A DNA stretch of 64,000 nt. Source: Candidatus Omnitrophica bacterium CG11_big_fil_rev_8_21_14_0_20_41_12. Lineage in GTDB: Bacteria > Omnitrophota > Gorgyraeia > Gygaellales > Profunditerraquicolaceae. Below the pieces are notes generated by a model that was not told where the DNA came from, searched no databases, and saw nothing but the letters and a program-made list of their open reading frames with translations. The translations under genes were made by a program, and so were the position numbers. Position 1 is the stretch's first letter; each line of letters begins with the position of its first letter. The DNA lies in the NCBI GenBank assembly GCA_002796135.1, contig PCWB01000055.1:22109-86108 (forward strand). The letters are read 5' to 3'. Positions 32,158 to 41,918 of the stretch are shown piece by piece.

Positions 32158-33150
32158 ATGCCAAAGCTTGCTGAGTTTGATTATCTGCTGCCTAAAGAAT
32201 TAATTGCCCAATATCCGCTTGAAAACAGGGAAGCTGCCCGGCTTTTGATCCTCAACCGGAAAACCGGCGAGCTTGGCCACGGTATATTCAAAGACATCGG
32301 TAATTTTTTCCAAAAGAATGATCTTTTGGTGCTCAATGATACCAAGGTTCTGCATTGCCGCTTAATGGGTAAAAAGATAACCGGGGGCAGGGTTGAGATT
32401 TTGCTCACCCGTAGGACCAACGGCACAACTTTTTCCTGCCTGGTTCAGCCCAGCCGCACAAAAGTAAAAGAGGTCATTTTTTTTGCCGCAGGCAAGATCA
32501 AAGGTACAATTTGCGGCCGCGGAAAAATTAGTTTTAAACAAGCTGATGCGGATCAAATTTATAATTTCGGCGTTGTACCTTTGCCTCCTTATATAAAACG
32601 CGAGCCTGAAGATTTAGATAAGATTTATTATCAGACGGTTTATGCTAAGAATGAAGGGGCGCTGGCATCTCCTACTGCCGGCCTGCATTTTAGTCAAGAT
32701 TCACTTAAGAGTATTGAATCTTGCGGGGTTAATCTGGCTTATGTTACCCTGCATGTAGGGTTAGGCACGTTTCGTCCGGTTAAATGTGAAGAGATAACCG
32801 AACATAAGATGGAGCCGGAATCGTTTTTTGTTCCTGGTAAAACCTCAGAGTTAATTAAACAAACCAAAATTAATCATGGGCGTATTATTGCTGTGGGCAC
32901 AACCGCACTGCGGGCTCTGGAAACTTTTGCTGACGGCAGAAAAGAAGGAAATACCGATTTATTCATTTATCCGGGATATAAATTCAAATTAGTCGATTGC
33001 CTCCTGACTAATTTTCATCTTCCTAAAACTACTCTTTTGATGTTGGTCTGCGCTTTTGCCGGCAGAGATTTGATGTTAAAAGCCTATCAGGAAGCAGTCG
33101 AGAAAAAATACAGATTTTACAGTTACGGCGACGCAATGTTGATCGTTTAA
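32158..33150 (+). CDS. queA: S-adenosylmethionine:tRNA ribosyltransferase-isomerase
   Basis: QueA N-terminal pattern (FDYLLPKELIAQYPLENR) and full-length similarity. Confidence 0.9.
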   Translation: MPKLAEFDYLLPKELIAQYPLENREAARLLILNRKTGELGHGIFKDIGNFFQKNDLLVLNDTKVLHCRLMGKKITGGRVEILLTRRTNGTTFSCLVQPSRTKVKEVIFFAAGKIKGTICGRGKISFKQADADQIYNFGVVPLPPYIKREPEDLDKIYYQTVYAKNEGALASPTAGLHFSQDSLKSIESCGVNLAYVTLHVGLGTFRPVKCEEITEHKMEPESFFVPGKTSELIKQTKINHGRIIAVGTTALRALETFADGRKEGNTDLFIYPGYKFKLVDCLLTNFHLPKTTLLMLVCAFAGRDLMLKAYQEAVEKKYRFYSYGDAMLIV

Positions 33151-33247
33151 TCTAAGCAAGGCATATCGATGGAAAAATAAAAATAGCCGCGGAACGGGCA
33201 GTTATCTTTCGGCACAGGCTTCAGAAAAATTCTTGTTATAAAAAAGC

Positions 33248-33276
33248 TTGACAATCTATAGTTAATCTAGTAAAGT
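33248..33276 (+). promoter_or_regulatory. Sigma70-like promoter of the arsR-led accessory operon, with overlapping palindromes
   Basis: TTGACA (33248-33253), a 17-nt spacer, then TAAAGT (33271-33276). TAGTTT-N10-AAACTA (33276-33297) and the 8-bp palindrome ATAGCTAT (33302-33309) lie between the -10 and the ATG at 33324. Confidence 0.45.
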
Positions 33277-33323
33277 AGTTTCGAAATACATAAACTATGA
33301 AATAGCTATCGAAGGGAATAACA

Positions 33324-33674
33324 ATGGATAAAAATATGGAAGAGAAAATGTTTCAGATGCATGCCGAGGTTTGTAAAAGCATGGCTAACCCCACACGCTT
33401 AAAAATTATCAATCTATTGGGTGCAGGAGAAAAAAGCGTCGAAGAACTAAGAAAAAGGCTCAAATTGCCGAAAGCGAATCTTTCTCAGCATTTGAGTATA
33501 CTGCGTCAACGCAGGATTGTTGCTGCAAGGAGAGAGGGCCTTAATGTTTACTATAAGTGCGCAAATCAAAAAATGCTCAAGGCTTGTGAGATTCTGCGGG
33601 AAGTGCTGATGGAGCAACTTGCCGAAGGGGGCCGTTTGGGTAAATGGATAGATAAGGGGAAAAATGAAACTTGA
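33324..33674 (+). CDS. ArsR/SmtB-family transcriptional regulator
   Basis: Winged-HTH ArsR pattern (ANPTRLKIINLL…LSQHLSILR). It has no Cys-containing alpha3 metalloid-binding motif of ArsR type. Cysteines are at C17 and a C-terminal pair. Confidence 0.75.
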   Translation: MDKNMEEKMFQMHAEVCKSMANPTRLKIINLLGAGEKSVEELRKRLKLPKANLSQHLSILRQRRIVAARREGLNVYYKCANQKMLKACEILREVLMEQLAEGGRLGKWIDKGKNET

Positions 33675-35964
33675 GCGCTTAACGCAAGCGGTTTTGGGCC
33701 GTCCTAAGCTGGTAATTGGGCTTGTAGCCGCCATTAGTATTTTCTTCATCGCGCAGTTTCCCAAGATTACGATTGATACTGATCCCAAGCATATGCTTCC
33801 TGAGGCTTCGCCTGTGCGCCAGTATAATGACTTGGTGGAAAAAGATTTTGTCCTTCATCCGGATGTGATCGTATTGGGGATAGTTAACAAGGATGGAATT
33901 TTTAACCCGCAAACGCTTAAATATGTAAAAGATCTGACGAATGCCGTTCGACAGATTCCCGGTGTGATTGTGCGGGACGTGGATAGCCTGACTACCGTCG
34001 AGAATGTATTTTCTAATCAGGGTGAACTTATCGTCAGGCCCGCTTTAGGCGATATTCCGGATACGGAAGCAGGGCTGGCAGCTTTACGCAAAAGTATTTT
34101 AGATAACGCGCTTTTTGTAAATCGTTTTATTTCTCCGGATGGTTTAGCCGTAGCGATTTTCATTCCTATAGAGCCGACGGCCAACGGTAAGGAAATCGCT
34201 GATAAAATTCGTGCGATGCTGCCAAAGAATTCAAGGCCCAATCAATTTTATCTTGCCGGAGATCCGGTTGCCCGCGATACATTCGGGACAGAGATGTTCC
34301 GTCAGATGGGGCTTTTTTCTCCTATCGCCGGTTTAGTGATGTGTATCGCGCTATGGTTTATGTTCCGCAATATTACCGTGATTATCGCTAACATGGCTGT
34401 TGCAATGATTAGCATCATTTGGAGCATGGGAGGCTTGATTGGTTTAGGGTTTCCCGTTCACATCATGAGTTCTATGGCTCCGGTTTTTTTAATGGCGATT
34501 GCCACTGATGCGGTGCATATTTTTAATGAGTTTGCTTTTCGGCTTGGCGAAGGACAAGATAAACGCAAAGCCATTCTAGAGACAATGAAAGTCGTTGCCT
34601 TGCCAATTTTTTATTCGGATGTCACCACTGCCGTGGGTTTTGCCGCGCTGGCAACAGTCACTATTGTTCCTGTTAAGATTTTCGGGTTAGTTGTTGCGTT
34701 TGGAACGCTGGTGATCCTTTTCATGAGTTTTACTTTTATTCCGGCCTTGCTGATGCTTATTCCTGAAAAGCATATTTTAAAGCTTGCTGCGGTGCATGGA
34801 AAAGGGGAAAAGTTCTCCCCTGTACTTTTACGCCTGGGAGGCTTTTGCGTAGAAAAGGCCAAACCTATTTTACTTGTAGGTATCGTGTTATTTATCGTGG
34901 CGCTAGCAGGCCTGGCGCGCATTCATGTTAACAACAACATGGTGCATTGGTTTAAATTTAATAGTGAAGTCAGAAGCGCAGACCGCGTTATGAATAAATA
35001 TCTTGGCGGGACTTCCACGGCTTATTTAGTTGTTCGGGCCAAAAATGAGGGCGCTGTAGGAGATCCCGCGTTTTTACGCCAAATTGAAGGCCTGCAGCGC
35101 GAATTGGAAAAAGATCCTTTAATCGGAAAAACATTTTCCTTGGCAGACTATATTAAACGCACAAATCTGGTAATGCATGATGATGCGCCGCTATTTAATC
35201 GTATTCCGGATTCTAAGCAGGAAGTAGGGCAGTATTTATTTCTTTTACAGTCAGCAGCCAAGCCCCGGCATCTGGATAACGTTGTCGATTTTTCCCTTAA
35301 AACTGCCAATATCATCATTCAGTTGAAAAGCTGGGACGCTGACACGATGAAGTCAGTAATCGGGCGGGCAAATAGTTTTTTCGCTGCGCATCCGTTGCCG
35401 GAAGTAGAGGATTTTAAACCGGCCGGGATCGCTTATTTTAATATGGTCTGGGACCATGAGGTGCTTTGGGGGATGGTTAGCAGTTTTCTCTGGGGGCTTA
35501 TTCTGGTATTGATACTGCTTGTTTTTCAGACCCGTTCGTTTCTCTGGGGGATTTTGAGTTTTCTGCCGCTGCTATTTACAATCGCATTGATTTATGGTGT
35601 CGTGGGATTAATCGGGAAAGATTTTGATATGCCGGTCGCTGTGTTATCCACGCTTTCCTTGGGTATGGCGGTTGATTTTGCCATCCATTTCGTCGGCCGG
35701 TTCCAGCAGCGGTATAAAGAAGACCCCCGGTTAAGAGAGGCTCTTATCTGGACGGTAGCCCGGCCCGGCAAAGGGATTTTTCTTAATGCTGTTCTTTTTG
35801 CCTTAGGGTTTGCCGTAATGGCTTTTGCAGCTTTAACTCCGTATATCACCGTGGGAGTTTTTATGGCGGCGATTATGGTTCTTTCTTCGGTGATGAGTGT
35901 TATTTATCTGCCGGCGCTTATTCAATTGGGGCGTCAAAAACTAATCAAGCGAGGTGGCGTATGA
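33664..35964 (+). CDS. MMPL/RND-superfamily membrane transporter
   Basis: 766 aa. Two repeated halves each have a large extracytoplasmic loop followed by a ~6-TM bundle, with an SSD-like GxxxD pattern. Confidence 0.6.
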   Translation: MKLERLTQAVLGRPKLVIGLVAAISIFFIAQFPKITIDTDPKHMLPEASPVRQYNDLVEKDFVLHPDVIVLGIVNKDGIFNPQTLKYVKDLTNAVRQIPGVIVRDVDSLTTVENVFSNQGELIVRPALGDIPDTEAGLAALRKSILDNALFVNRFISPDGLAVAIFIPIEPTANGKEIADKIRAMLPKNSRPNQFYLAGDPVARDTFGTEMFRQMGLFSPIAGLVMCIALWFMFRNITVIIANMAVAMISIIWSMGGLIGLGFPVHIMSSMAPVFLMAIATDAVHIFNEFAFRLGEGQDKRKAILETMKVVALPIFYSDVTTAVGFAALATVTIVPVKIFGLVVAFGTLVILFMSFTFIPALLMLIPEKHILKLAAVHGKGEKFSPVLLRLGGFCVEKAKPILLVGIVLFIVALAGLARIHVNNNMVHWFKFNSEVRSADRVMNKYLGGTSTAYLVVRAKNEGAVGDPAFLRQIEGLQRELEKDPLIGKTFSLADYIKRTNLVMHDDAPLFNRIPDSKQEVGQYLFLLQSAAKPRHLDNVVDFSLKTANIIIQLKSWDADTMKSVIGRANSFFAAHPLPEVEDFKPAGIAYFNMVWDHEVLWGMVSSFLWGLILVLILLVFQTRSFLWGILSFLPLLFTIALIYGVVGLIGKDFDMPVAVLSTLSLGMAVDFAIHFVGRFQQRYKEDPRLREALIWTVARPGKGIFLNAVLFALGFAVMAFAALTPYITVGVFMAAIMVLSSVMSVIYLPALIQLGRQKLIKRGGV

Positions 35965-36782
35965 GAAAAATACTCTCTGTTGCGGTAATTGTTTTTCTAT
36001 TATTGGTGAATATATTTTGGACTGAAAATGCCTGTGCTCAAGATACGCAAAACGCAGAGGCTGTGATGAACGAAATGCTTTTAGCTTATTATTATCCTCA
36101 AACCGATGTCAAAAACGAGATATCTATGCGTATCGTGAATCGTCAAGGCCAGATCCGCCAGCGGCGCCTAACCATGCTTCGTCTTAACCAGTCACCCGGC
36201 GGCGATCAGTCTTATTACATCTACTTCCATGAGCCTGCCGAGGTTAGAGGGATGAGTTTTTTAGTTTTAAAGCATCTTGGCCGCGATGACGACCGCTGGC
36301 TTTATTTGCCGGCGATTGATCTGGTTAAGCGTATTGCTACGAGTGACAAGCGGACGAGTTTTGCGGGGTCAGACTTTACTTATGAAGATGTTTCCGGGCG
36401 CGCTCTTGATGCAGATAAGCATGAGTTGATCGGCGAAGAAAATCTTGGTACGTATTCCTGCCTTGTAGTGAAAAGTACGCCGCAACGCCCGGGAGAGGCA
36501 GAATTTAGCTATCGGAAATTCTGGCTTGATAAAACAACGCATCTTCCGCTTAAGATGGAGCATTATGATCTTAAGGGTAAGATTTACAAGGTTTATGAGG
36601 CCCAAGAGGTTCAAACCATCCAGGGTATCCCGACAATCACCAAAGCCGCGATGAAGGATCTTGAGAACGAACGGTCTACCGAGATTGCAATAAAAAACGT
36701 CTCTTATAATGTGGGAATTACTTCCGAGATTTTCCAAGAAAGGCTTTTGCGCAGGCCTCCCAGAGAATGGATTGGAGAATAA
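35961..36782 (+). CDS. LolA-like outer-membrane lipoprotein-sorting-type periplasmic protein (DUF1329-like)
   Basis: A signal peptide and ~270 aa. It is translationally coupled to the MMPL transporter, the arrangement of known RND/DUF1329/DUF1302 trios. Confidence 0.4.
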   Translation: MRKILSVAVIVFLLLVNIFWTENACAQDTQNAEAVMNEMLLAYYYPQTDVKNEISMRIVNRQGQIRQRRLTMLRLNQSPGGDQSYYIYFHEPAEVRGMSFLVLKHLGRDDDRWLYLPAIDLVKRIATSDKRTSFAGSDFTYEDVSGRALDADKHELIGEENLGTYSCLVVKSTPQRPGEAEFSYRKFWLDKTTHLPLKMEHYDLKGKIYKVYEAQEVQTIQGIPTITKAAMKDLENERSTEIAIKNVSYNVGITSEIFQERLLRRPPREWIGE

Positions 36783-36783
36783 T

Positions 36784-38154
36784 TTGTTGGGCAAGGCCGG
36801 CATTATTATTCCGATATGTTTTATTCTGTCCGTCTCCAGCAGTAAGCTTTTGTTTGCTGAATCCGTGTCTACTGATGTCAGAGAAACAGTCGGCACGCCT
36901 CAAGACGAAAAGAAACCGCCGGATGCTTGGTCTAGAATCTTTGATTCAGTCCATGGATTTATAGAGGCTGCTTACGGACCTAAATTTTCAGGAGATAAGC
37001 TGACGCAAAAGAATGGCTATAATCTCCTAGAGCAACGCCTCCAGCTTAAAGTGGATTACCGGCCGCAAGAACCTGCCTGGTTTGCGTCATGGAATCCGGA
37101 ATTTTTCTATAAAGCGGATCTTTTGGCTGATGAATATAAGGAAACCCTGCGGTATCAGACTCGTGAAGGATATGGGCTGTTTAGCCCTCTTTCCTGGATG
37201 GATATTAAGCTGGGAAGGCAGATTCTTACCTGGGGAACCGGTGATTATCTTTTTATCAACGATGTCTTCCCGAAGGACTACGAATCATTCTTTACCGGCC
37301 GGGATGATGAATACCTCAAGGTACCTTTAGATGCCGGAAAGTTCTCCATATTTAGCCGTTTAGTTTCAATGGATGTGGCGGTTATTCCTTTTTTTGCTCC
37401 GGATGTCTCATTTACCGGAGATCGTTTGAGTTTCTACGATAATTTTCTTGGCTGGATTGCAGGTACGCAGTCAAGCCGGGTATTCATAGAGCCCGCGGTT
37501 CAGTTCAAGAATACAGAAATAGCCGCTCGTCTATATCGTAATTTCGGAGAGTATGAAACAGCTGTTTACATGTTCAAAGGATTTTTTAATCAGCCGTTCG
37601 GTATTCAGGATGAGAATGCAAAAGAGGTATTTTATCCCAAGCTTGCAGTTTTTGGGGCGAGTATCCGCGGGCCTGCGCCGTCTGCCGGAGGGATCGCTTC
37701 CGGTGAAATAGGTTACTATGATTCTTTAGAAGATCGTAATGGTAAAAACCGGCTCATTGAGAATTCGGGGATGAAGTATCTTCTTGGTTACGAGCGGGAT
37801 TTCCCCAAGGATTGGCGCTTAGGTTTGCAGTATTACGTAGAACAGATGCTGGATTTTGATGAATTCAAAGCAAACAGCCAGCCCGGAGATATCCCCCAAG
37901 ATGAGTTTCGGCAACTCTTAACTTTGCGCGTCACCAAGCTCTTCAGGTTTCAAACTTTAGAGGCATCACTTTTTACTTTTTACAGTCCCACGGATAGTGA
38001 TGCCTACATACGGCCGCGCCTTGCCTGGCAGGCAAATGATCGTTGGAAATTGACCGCAGGGGTAAATGTTTTTTTTGGTAAACACGATTGGACCGAGTTT
38101 GGCCAATTGGAAGGTAACGACAACTTTTATCTAAGGCTTAGATATAGCTTTTAA
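36784..38154 (+). CDS. Putative outer-membrane beta-barrel protein (DUF1302-like)
   Basis: A TTG start immediately after the upstream stop, then a signal peptide. Amphipathic beta-strand alternation runs throughout, and it ends …LRLRYSF with a terminal aromatic. Confidence 0.35.
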   Translation: MLGKAGIIIPICFILSVSSSKLLFAESVSTDVRETVGTPQDEKKPPDAWSRIFDSVHGFIEAAYGPKFSGDKLTQKNGYNLLEQRLQLKVDYRPQEPAWFASWNPEFFYKADLLADEYKETLRYQTREGYGLFSPLSWMDIKLGRQILTWGTGDYLFINDVFPKDYESFFTGRDDEYLKVPLDAGKFSIFSRLVSMDVAVIPFFAPDVSFTGDRLSFYDNFLGWIAGTQSSRVFIEPAVQFKNTEIAARLYRNFGEYETAVYMFKGFFNQPFGIQDENAKEVFYPKLAVFGASIRGPAPSAGGIASGEIGYYDSLEDRNGKNRLIENSGMKYLLGYERDFPKDWRLGLQYYVEQMLDFDEFKANSQPGDIPQDEFRQLLTLRVTKLFRFQTLEASLFTFYSPTDSDAYIRPRLAWQANDRWKLTAGVNVFFGKHDWTEFGQLEGNDNFYLRLRYSF

Positions 38155-38160
38155 GAGGAG

Positions 38161-38520
38161 GTGTCCATGGATAAAATAACTGTTATACTTAACGAAGGCC
38201 CTAACACAATGCGTTCTTGGAATGGTTTGCGTCTGACAGGAGGTTTGTTGGATGTAAATTTACAGGCGGAAGTAGTTTTGTTTGATGAGTCGGTTTTCTG
38301 CGCTAAAAAATCCCAAAATCCACCGGAAGATCTAAAGGGATTGAATCTTAGCCAGAAGTTATCGGAGTTGATCAAGCTGGGAGTTAAAGTTTTGGTCTGC
38401 GGAAGCTGTTGCCAGGCTCGAGGCGTAAAGTCAGAAGAATTGGTTGATGGAGCCCAGATCTGTTGTCTGACGGATGTGGCAAACGCCATAAAGACAAGCA
38501 GGCAAACATTAGTATTTTAA
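38161..38520 (+). CDS. DsrE/DsrF(TusD)-like small protein
   Basis: 119 aa with a YchN/DsrE-fold pattern (ITVILNEGP…) and Cys-containing VCGSCC. Confidence 0.45.
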   Translation: MSMDKITVILNEGPNTMRSWNGLRLTGGLLDVNLQAEVVLFDESVFCAKKSQNPPEDLKGLNLSQKLSELIKLGVKVLVCGSCCQARGVKSEELVDGAQICCLTDVANAIKTSRQTLVF

Positions 38521-38554
38521 AACACCTCGCGCTAATTGGAATTGCGCGAGTGTT
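38521..38554 (+). promoter_or_regulatory. Palindromic hairpin, second copy of the motif seen at 3705-3738
   Basis: AACACCTCGCGC, an 11-nt loop, then GCGCGAGTGTT. It has the same arm architecture, the same single-C bulge and the same loop length as the clpP-upstream hairpin. A C:G to T:A compensatory pair distinguishes the copies. Confidence 0.3.
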
Positions 38555-38576
38555 CCCTTGTGGGAAGGAGGATATA

Positions 38577-39319
38577 ATGCTCAATCTAAATCCTGATGAG
38601 ATTAAGAAACTGGTTAAAGATAAATACAGCAAGGTCGCTTGTGATCCTTATGGGGTGTATAATTTTCCCGTAGGAAAAGCGTTTGCCTTGAAAGTCGGTT
38701 ACCCTCAAGAAGTTTTGGATACGCTTCCTGTTTCTTTGATGGAGTCTTTTACCGGCGCCAATAACCCTCAGCCGTTTGTGGAACTGAAGCCAGGCGAGAT
38801 TGTATTGGATTTAGGTTGCGGCGGCGGCCTGGATTTATATTTTTATAGCCAGGCTGTGGGGCCGCAAGGAAAGGTTTATGGCGTAGATATTTCCGAAGAT
38901 ATGGTGAACCGGGCAAAAGACAATATGCGTAAAACGGAAAGAGCAAATACGGAAATCCGTATCGGAGAATCTGACAGCATCCCTTTTAACGAAGCATTCT
39001 TTGATCTGGTTGCCTCAAACGGTATTTATAACCTATCTCCGGATAAAGAAGCGGCCATGAAAGAGGTGTTTAGGGTTTTAAAACTCGGAGGCCGGACGGT
39101 CTTTTGTGAAATTGTTCTAAAAGAGCCGTTGTCTGAGGATGAAAGGAAAAATCATAGCGATTGGTTTAGGTGTATCGGCGGAGCTTTGGTGGAAAATGAT
39201 TTTATCGATTTAATGAAAAAAGTTGGCTTTGAGAATATAGAAGTTATATCTACCTGCCGTAATGCCCGCACCGGACATCCTTCGGCTATTTGCGCAAATA
39301 TACGCGCCTATAAAAGATA

Positions 39320-39320
<1 letters not shown>
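38577..39320 (+). CDS. ArsM-family SAM-dependent methyltransferase lacking the canonical As(III)-binding cysteines
   Basis: SAM motif I (VLDLGCGGGLD…VGPQGKVYGVD), an ArsM-like N-terminal region (GYPQEV…GANNPQPF), and a C-terminal WFRCIGGAL. The positions equivalent to ArsM Cys72 (…GANNP…) and Cys174 (…SNGIYNL…) are not Cys. The start was set to the ATG at 38577 behind a GGAAGGAGG RBS. Confidence 0.6.

Positions 39321-41918
<2,598 letters not shown>

Follow-up and report, generated by a model that had tools for sequence, protein, structure and literature searches.

What does an enzyme built on the plan of the arsenite methyltransferase ArsM methylate once two of the cysteines that bind arsenite in ArsM are missing? 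The question is raised by a gene in a 64,000-nucleotide stretch of contig PCWB01000055.1 (positions 22,109 to 86,108 of the forward strand) from Candidatus Omnitrophica bacterium CG11_big_fil_rev_8_21_14_0_20_41_12; the whole of this stretch is called the window here, and coordinates count from its first base. The gene lies on the + strand at 38577..39320, from an ATG at 38577 to a TAA stop at 39318-39320, and encodes an ArsM-like S-adenosylmethionine (SAM) methyltransferase of 247 residues. What it methylates is probably some form of sulfur or selenium and not arsenite, because relatives of the protein adjoin, or are fused to, sulfur-carrier proteins. The fuller reading favored here, at a probability of roughly 0.45, is that of an active SAM methyltransferase, sister to ArsM, whose arsenite (As(III)) site has been dismantled and in which sulfur or selenium would be loaded on Cys199, methylated and released.

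The arsenic site and its retained cysteine

The gene encodes an intact class I SAM methyltransferase and carries a strong Shine-Dalgarno sequence (AAGGAGG, 38565-38571) six bases before its ATG. A 285-residue open reading frame (ORF) that starts at TTG 38463 on the same strand, with a 5' extension at 38463-38576, is an artifact of ORF listing and a trap for annotation. Every motif quoted in the first-pass annotation was found in the translation, namely SAM motif I (VLDLGCGGG), the N-terminal block VGYPQEVLDTLP...FTGANNP, SNGIYNL and WFRCIGGAL. The protein matches the Pfam families Methyltransf_31, Methyltransf_25 and Methyltransf_11, and its C-terminus reads ...CANIRAYKR, with no AhpD, DUF2284 or UXPK-star extension. 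A terminator-like match inside the gene (38806-38837) overlaps the coding sequence of SAM motif I and is probably due to chance.

Comparison with ArsM of known structure places the protein firmly on that scaffold. Searches with phmmer against ArsM structure chains gave E values of 4e-22 to 8e-23, and when the AlphaFold2 model (pLDDT 87.8) was searched against the PDB with Foldseek, the top 13 matches were all ArsM/AS3MT (E ~1e-17, TM-scores 0.62-0.73). By these measures homology to ArsM/AS3MT is far beyond chance. Residues were mapped by phmmer alignment to the CmArsM (Cyanidioschyzon) chains, counted by chain index. FYGC72GS of CmArsM aligns with FTGA61NN, and the C72A mutant entry 5eg5 likewise shows 'ga' at this position; SNC174VCNL is paired with SNG149IYNL and GEC224LGGAL with FRC199IGGAL. 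Thus Ala61 (codon 38757-38759) stands at the position of Cys72 and Gly149 (39021-39023) at that of the As(III) ligand Cys174, and the other As(III) ligand, Cys224, is matched by Cys199 (39171-39173). The cysteine assignments of the first-pass annotation were therefore right: two of the three are absent, the WFRC cysteine is kept, and the canonical cysteines are not merely shifted. Its count of three conserved cysteines holds for these mapped positions and falls short as a total, as characterized ArsMs have four. The fourth, N-terminal one is taken here to be C44 of CmArsM, a residue that lies outside the phmmer alignment and would correspond to about position 25. The CC motif of canonical representatives corresponds to positions 24-25, where the window protein has Tyr25, plus a Cys22. 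A further cysteine, Cys239 (39291-39293), is located in the C-terminal RNARTGH..C tail.

The placement of the protein relative to ArsM itself was determined from a search of 1.84 billion cluster representatives, in the best 150 of which the three cysteine positions were tabulated. Two groups are apparent: a canonical one with the pattern GCGNP / SNCVINL / W..C.(G/A)GA, and a cysteine-poor one with F(A/T)G(V/A)... / (S/A)NG..NL / W..C..GA. On a neighbor-joining distance tree of 145 sequences, built without support values, the three-cysteine (CCC) representatives form a single clade together with a few variants at these positions; the window protein falls outside it, grouped with Gly149-type and selenocysteine (Sec)-type sequences and next to those that end in 'WFR'. 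Against the NCBIfam arsenite methyltransferase model NF008823 it scores 190.2 bits (E = 5e-56), under the cut-off of 263, as compared with 354 bits for the canonical representative P0140 and 183-206 for other cysteine-poor members. The label of ArsM family that the gene had first been given is thus supported at the level of fold and superfamily and not at that of the clade. By that annotation's own standard, a place inside or outside the ArsM clade, these comparisons make the protein an ArsM sister rather than an ArsM, because it lies outside the canonical clade and scores 190 against 263 bits. The best NCBIfam models are those of ArsM-like selenoproteins, which were reportedly defined by Haft and Tolstoy in 2025 (mSystems): NF041537, NF047649 and NF041536 give 225, 207 and 206 bits where 510, 460 and 575 would be required, and the match covers the methyltransferase part only. 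Membership of the UbiE/COQ5 group was not found, the Pfam model Ubie_methyltran covering profile positions 45-154 of 233 only and the NCBIfam UbiE/MenG models giving 60-64 bits against cut-offs of 158-420.

The cysteine pattern is shared by relatives near and far. The close homologues, taken as the best 120 database matches (~246 residues, mostly labelled Candidatus Omnitrophota), are 71-88% identical to the window protein, apart from one partial match at 98%. A61, G149 and C199 each occur in 120 of 120, with FTGANNP and SNGIYNL throughout; position 25, Tyr in the window protein, is Cys in 99. A scan of 185,579 species genomes yielded 80 related loci of 51-86% identity, which are referred to below as the subclade. 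Their titles name Omnitrophota, Planctomycetota, Actinomycetota, Verrucomicrobiia, Elusimicrobiota, Spirochaetota, Nitrospirota, Woesearchaeota, Nanoarchaeia, Bathyarchaeia and others, at least eight phylum-level lineages in all, although nearly all are metagenome-assembled genomes (MAGs) or single-cell genomes and the lineage names, being MAG labels, need caution. G149 and C199 are present at all 80 loci, and position 61 is Ala, Val or Leu at all of them and never Cys; C239 is present in 73 of 80 and any N-terminal Cys in 37 of 80. In alignments of 11-48 sequences SAM motif I, the acidic Asp104 after β2, the NG(I/F)(Y/F)NLSP block and the C-terminal R-N-A-R-T-(G)-H motif are invariant, and mean column identity among Omnitrophota homologues is 76-78%. 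Because the pattern at positions 61, 149 and 199 is invariant in both the 120 homologues and the 80 loci, the loss of cysteines is a fixed trait of the family and not a lesion. The suggestion, also raised at first, that the gene might be a non-catalytic paralog is unlikely in view of the invariant SAM-binding motifs and of the replacement of the retained cysteine by Sec in many relatives. That annotation had overlooked Cys239, the Sec variants, the operon headed by ArsR (described below) and the size and wide distribution of the clade.

That ArsM-like proteins can carry Sec at this position is already known. Among the database representatives, many of ~200 residues end right after 'WF(R)', at position 201-202 of the selenoprotein hidden Markov models. 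When the codon at position 199 was read in the frame of each match in metagenome DNA, it was TGA in 35 Gly149-type loci (among L086-L155; for example L087, 244-825), and beyond the TGA the frame runs on through xGGAL or xAGAL for 60-80 further residues; at canonical, Cys174-type loci with a readable site the codon is TGC or TGT in 18 of 18. Most of 34 folded loci show a hairpin of 7-8 bp that resembles a selenocysteine insertion sequence (SECIS) and starts 12-16 nt past the TGA. The stem sequences vary between loci and the position is constant (mean z = -1.1), behavior that matches what would be expected of a bacterial SECIS element. Since Sec, encoded by TGA with a SECIS-like hairpin, occupies position 199 in relatives, comparison of these sequences indicates that residue 199 is the reactive center of the clade. 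Several Sec-type loci carry an RNARTG-type tail without an equivalent of Cys239. Gene calling that stops at TGA would cut Sec-type genes about 60-80 codons early, and the ~200-residue representatives ending in 'WF(R)' look like exactly such TGA-ended calls. A review (PMC13188914) lists 'UxxG' arsenite-methyltransferase-like selenoproteins, whose functions are described as largely uncharacterized.

Neighbors and fusion partners of the subclade

Neighbors were analyzed with one seed-based method for all sets of loci. By this method a gene for a DsrE-like protein, a NifS-type desulfurase or a DUF2892 protein lies within 2.5 kb at 37 of 80 subclade loci; among the canonical ArsM loci the figure is 0 of 33 (p = 1e-7, Fisher test). 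Upstream of the 80 loci and co-directional, the Pfam counts are DsrE 12, YgaP-like_TM/DUF2892 11, Aminotran_5 9, ArsR HTH_5 9, Rhodanese 5, NapH-like ferredoxin 4-5 and ArsP 2; downstream and co-directional they are PNP 9, cupin 6-7, DsrE 5, Aminotran_5 4, YgaP-like_TM/DUF2892 3, Cys/Met pyridoxal-phosphate enzyme 3, OsmC 3 and ThiS 2. Scored with the NifS model, the neighboring desulfurases reach 431-491 bits; the pyridoxal-phosphate enzyme is MetY-like (O-acetylhomoserine sulfhydrylase; 484 bits on TIGR01326). In 12-14 related loci the DsrE-like gene is directly upstream of the methyltransferase, as in the window. A PNP-like gene is the co-directional downstream neighbor in nine loci and lies within a few kb in 11; apparent PNP::methyltransferase fusions proved to be overlapping stop-to-stop segments and are not real. 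Genes of the ArsR family occur near 29-30 of the 80 subclade loci and near 19 of the 33 canonical ones, where the neighbors are instead ArsR and the organoarsenical permease ArsP. None of arsC, acr3 and arsB is among the top neighbor families of the 80 loci.

The order of the genes differs between lineages. It is DsrE-methyltransferase in Omnitrophota; ArsR-NifS-methyltransferase, NifS::methyltransferase and DUF2892::methyltransferase-MetY in Planctomycetota; and NifS-DsrE-methyltransferase in a Verrucomicrobiia MAG. Fusions within the subclade join the methyltransferase to a NifS-type desulfurase (52% identical to the window protein), to ArsR and, as judged by eye from sequence, to a DUF2892-like N-terminal membrane segment. 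In the wider cysteine-poor clade MT::TusA (MT, methyltransferase) and DsbA-like::MT proteins were found, as well as MT::MerC and MT::HMA. The database proteins in which a cysteine-poor methyltransferase is fused are P0124, P0121, P0122, P0126, P0142, P0143, P0169 and P0174; these 'Rosetta stone' partners also include a polytopic membrane domain of 200 residues. The proposal of the first-pass annotation that the methyl acceptor is something other than arsenite (sulfur, selenium or a thiol) thereby gains comparative support from DsrE-like, NifS, DUF2892, rhodanese and MetY-like neighbors and fusions, the substrate itself being still inferred.

Some features of these loci recur in smaller numbers. 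At five loci (L003, 6965-7624; L015; L017; L021; L058) a NapH-like or HgcB-like membrane ferredoxin (Fer4_5) lies between ArsR and either the DsrE-like gene or the methyltransferase, a hint that the pathway may include a redox step linked to the membrane. In L050-L052, from MAGs labelled Planctomycetota, the DUF2892-fused methyltransferase is followed directly by the MetY-like gene. MetY can condense methanethiol with O-acetylhomoserine to give methionine, so that the enzyme of these loci could consume the proposed product. A second, unrelated class I methyltransferase of 191 residues follows the PNP-like gene in some Omnitrophota loci (L001, 9585-10160; L006, 7587-8147) and is absent from the window.

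The gene block in the window

In the window the methyltransferase belongs to a block of seven co-directional genes (33150-40114) in which genes overlap or are separated by gaps of at most 56 nt. The block is flanked on its 5' side by queA (32158-33150, +) and on the other by tgt (40093-41238, +), both genes of the queuosine pathway, with trmD beyond. In many bacteria queA and tgt are adjacent. The ArsR-headed block looks like a cassette inserted between them. The only sizeable intergenic gap, of 173 nt between queA and ArsR, holds a promoter-like site (33248..33276, +; TTGACA, a 17-nt spacer and TAAAGT, 10/12 match); it is the best such site in 33000-41500, and it is weak evidence, since shuffled sequence yields as many such sites or more. 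The first gene encodes an ArsR/SmtB-family regulator of 116 residues (33324..33674, +; Pfam HTH_5, 4.5e-12) that has cysteines at positions 17, 79 and 88 and no ELCVC-type arsenite site; it scores 79.8 bits on NF033788 (cut-off 55), with BigR second at 58 bits, under its cut-off of 155. Four further loci of Omnitrophota likewise have ArsR ahead of the methyltransferase, at a distance of about 4.5-4.9 kb.

Next comes an MMPL/RND-type membrane transporter (33664..35964, +; Pfam MMPL, 7e-32), whose start overlaps the end of ArsR and which occurs in a like arrangement in 12 Omnitrophota loci. It is followed by a LolA-like/DUF1329 periplasmic protein (35961..36782, +; Pfam LolA_like, 4.4e-61), found in 11 related loci, and a DUF1302-like putative outer-membrane protein (36709..38154, +; Pfam DUF1302, a marginal 2.1e-05), found in 15 and counted as DUF1302 among the upstream neighbors in six. 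As listed, the start of the DUF1302-like gene overlaps the LolA-like gene by 74 nt, and the true start is probably downstream. The DsrE/YchN-like gene (38167..38520, +) has an ATG preceded by GAGGAGG and encodes a small protein of 117 residues with the motif VCGSCC (Pfam DsrE, 2e-16; PDB YchN 1jx7, 8.8e-09). In an alignment of 26 rows, the window protein and 25 DsrE-like neighbor ORFs, the first Cys of the CxxC is the only cysteine among the three columns that reach 90% conservation. It probably corresponds to the active-site Cys of DsrE/TusD. Opposite this gene runs a 112-residue antisense ORF (38151-38489, -); in five related loci the matching antisense ORF wins over the DsrE-like gene under longest-ORF calling, which is another annotation trap.

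The spacer of 56 nt between the DsrE-like gene and the methyltransferase contains an imperfect inverted repeat (38523..38552, +), read from the sequence as CACCTCGCGC-TAATTGGAATT-GCGCGAGTG, with a TCGCGC / GCGCGA core, an 11-nt loop and no run of T after it; it could be an element for RNA stability, processing or regulation. Downstream, a PNP/MTAP-like nucleoside phosphorylase (39320..40114, +; Pfam PNP_UDP_1, 5.6e-25) is overlapped at its listed end by tgt, by 22 nt at the listed tgt start. Its ATG overlaps the stop codon of the methyltransferase as TAATG, which suggests translational coupling of the two genes. Its closest PDB entries are the Thermus thermophilus PNP 1odi and the Sulfolobus solfataricus MTAP 1jds; with regard to a role as S-adenosylhomocysteine nucleosidase, its best matches are hexameric PNP/MTAP and not MtnN. 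From gene order alone, the ArsR-headed block with its MMPL exporter set and PNP/MTAP-like enzyme points to a stress or detoxification module. Throughout the window (1-64000) all ORFs of at least 200 residues are on the + strand and tightly packed, GC skew is positive in 32 of 32 two-kb bins (0.09-0.23), and no tRNA or tRNA-Sec gene was found.

Proposed chemistry, alternatives and known systems

In the mechanism proposed here, the three-thiolate As(III) site would have been dismantled in the clade by the changes from Cys72 to Ala and from Cys174 to Gly, leaving one reactive residue at the Cys224 position. A sulfur-carrier partner (in the window the DsrE/YchN-like protein; elsewhere a NifS-type desulfurase, a DUF2892 protein or a rhodanese) would place sulfane sulfur or selenium on Cys199 as a persulfide or selenylsulfide, and the terminal S or Se would then be methylated by SAM. 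Either the putative resolving residue Cys239, in the RNARTGH..C loop between β6 and β7, or an external thiol would then resolve the resulting Cys199-S-S-CH3 and set methanethiol or methylselenol free, and the remaining disulfide would be re-reduced. The invariant Arg198, Arg228, Arg231 and His234 are candidate binders of an anionic substrate, and NapH-like ferredoxins and thiol-redox fusion partners would suit a reductive release. The sequences themselves show the homology, the residue replacements and their invariance, Sec at the retained position and the association with neighboring genes; the substrate, its covalent loading and what Cys239 does are inferred. It is more tentative, and at present doubtful, that the clade as a whole represents an unrecognized type of chalcogen methyltransferase, one that would act on a persulfide or selenylsulfide bound to Cys/Sec199 of the enzyme and be derived from an ArsM scaffold stripped of its arsenic site.

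Several observations weigh against this mechanism. At 43 of the 80 subclade loci there is no sulfur-carrier neighbor, and among distant Sec-type loci one is present at 3 of 41, which is not significant; the claim of association is therefore restricted to the subclade of the window protein. The loci share synteny among related genomes and are not independent samples, a problem that is reduced but not removed by the repetition of the association in several distinct gene orders. Cys239 is missing in 7 of 80 loci and in the Sec-type relatives examined, and thus is no universal resolving residue. The MerC and HMA fusions of the wider clade are a misfit with sulfur chemistry and, like the two ArsP neighbors, point to metals or metalloids, and Haft and Gwadz tie CxxC(C)-type DsrE/YchN-like proteins to metal handling. 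Methyltransferases of the MddH type, which act on H2S and methanethiol (MeSH), have been characterized without a covalent enzyme persulfide being proposed for them, and no biochemical data on any member of the clade were found in the accessible literature.

The serious rival is a metalloid methyltransferase, acting on As(III), methylarsenite (MAs(III)), Sb(III) or Te at a site rebuilt from Cys199, Cys239 and, in most relatives from Omnitrophota, the N-terminal Cys25 (Cys22 here). Canonical ArsMs methylate MAs(III) with the Cys174/Cys224 pair alone, and with C239 at 73 of 80 loci and an N-terminal Cys at 37 of 80 two or three thiols would often be available. The rival also draws on the ArsM-like fold and N-terminal domain, on the ArsR gene that heads the operon here and occurs at ~30 of 80 loci, as it does at 19 of 33 canonical loci, and on the upstream ArsP_1 permeases, the MerC and HMA fusions and the metal-linked DsrE-like proteins of Haft and Gwadz already mentioned. 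However, Cys239 does not correspond in position to Cys174, and parts of the subclade manage without Cys239 or without the N-terminal Cys; the window ArsR is without a CVC-type arsenite site; arsC, acr3 and arsB are missing from the top neighbor families; the protein scores too low for the curated ArsM model and lies outside the canonical clade; and canonical loci show no association with sulfur carriers. A rebuilt metalloid site is held to be unlikely, though a genuine competitor of the favored reading. The general sulfur context would equally suit direct methylation of free nucleophiles (H2S, methanethiol, HSe- or low-molecular-weight thiols), with Cys199 only tuning the pocket; UbiE-type class I enzymes with such activity exist (MddH, MddM1/2), and a MetY-like gene is directly downstream in three loci. 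Complete conservation and repeated recoding to Sec would be unusual for a passive pocket residue, and the NifS and TusA fusions suggest the hand-over of protein-bound sulfur rather than the capture of free sulfide, so that this explanation is judged rather improbable.

A macromolecular target would be either the DsrE-like partner, S-methylated at a Cys or persulfide, or a thiolated tRNA nucleoside. The known relay of s2U34 tRNA thiolation consists of a desulfurase, TusA and DsrE-like proteins, conservation is very high (70-88% across Omnitrophota), and the window block lies between queA and tgt, with trmD flanking. It was these neighbors that prompted a tRNA-modification reading, which was rejected as relatives do not share queA, tgt and trmD as neighbors; neither tgt nor queA is among the recurrent neighbor families, the ArsR, DUF2892, OsmC and MetY-like neighbors better fit stress or small-molecule chemistry, and the N-terminal lid of the ArsM type is an architecture for small substrates. 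Such a target is a long shot and less likely than a metalloid. Less likely still, and hardly credible, is a non-catalytic paralog, whether it serves in binding or regulation or is an ArsM in decay. The loss of two cysteines that canonical ArsM cannot do without speaks for it; against it stand an intact ORF with a strong Shine-Dalgarno sequence, the invariance of SAM motif I and of the acidic β2 residue, a substitution pattern fixed in 80-120 homologues across phyla, purifying selection as indicated by the mean column identity of 76-78%, and the investment in Sec at the retained position, which implies chemistry.

The distinction has consequences for annotation as well as for enzymology. NCBI already withholds the name arsenite methyltransferase from the window protein; some public records give it to close homologues. 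Metagenome surveys that trust such labels would over-count the potential for arsenic methylation in groundwater and sediments, habitats in which Omnitrophota and Planctomycetota are common. Should the clade methylate S or Se handed over by desulfurase or DsrE carriers, methanethiol or methylselenol would have a further, new enzymatic source, and the clade would show clearly how an enzyme scaffold can be redirected from a metalloid substrate to a chalcogen. On the more tentative reading of an unrecognized type of chalcogen methyltransferase, it would be a new ArsR-family-associated source of volatile methylated S and Se in lineages of anoxic groundwater and sediment (Omnitrophota, Planctomycetota, DPANN archaea). 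With Cys or Sec at position 199 the catalytic residue is precisely placed and testable, and the recurrent NifS, ArsR, DUF2892 and TusA fusions name likely partners. Literature searches, also those on Cys-less ArsM with selenite or tellurite, turned up no description of the cysteine-poor subclade with its RNARTGH..C tail, of its spread over mostly uncultivated lineages, or of the linkage and fusions that connect it with sulfur carriers (NifS, DsrE, DUF2892).

Among known systems, ArsM/AS3MT (CmArsM 4fs8/4fr0, CrArsM 5evj, human AS3MT 8xt7) gives the best sequence and structure matches, at 25-30% identity, and has the same N-terminal lid and Rossmann core. Like ArsM, the window protein keeps the equivalent of Cys224 in W..C.GGA and has an ArsR-family regulator nearby. 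Unlike ArsM, it has Ala and Gly at the Cys72 and Cys174 positions, lacks the C-terminal domain (247 residues against ~380), possesses its own conserved RNARTGH..C tail and belongs to a group with sulfur-carrier rather than ars neighbors. The UxxG selenoproteins (NF041537, ArsM/AhpD; NF047649, methyltransferase/UXPK-star; NF041536, ArsM/DUF2284) have UxxG where the window protein has CxxG, and Sec-type loci likewise have Gly at the Cys174 position. In contrast to these families the window protein uses Cys, is without the AhpD, DUF2284 or UXPK-star extension and scores far under their cut-offs.

MddH, MddM1/2 (UbiE-type) and thiopurine methyltransferase (TPMT) are soluble class I enzymes that methylate reduced sulfur, which is the chemistry proposed for the window protein; unlike that proposal, no covalent Cys or Sec role has been put forward for enzymes of the MddH/MddM/TPMT type. 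MddH is described only as UbiE-like. The words 'ArsM' and 'arsenite' have 0 occurrences in its paper, and ArsM is never mentioned in the MddH and MddM papers; the MddH paper also reports MddH genes among metal-related genes without an obvious link to sulfur. The partner systems that come closest are the DsrE/TusD/YchN relays together with NifS/IscS. Known relays of this kind serve to thiolate tRNA, to make cofactors or to oxidize sulfur and, so far as was found, none ends in a methyltransferase; the DsrE-like gene of the window, directly upstream of one, keeps the relay cysteine.

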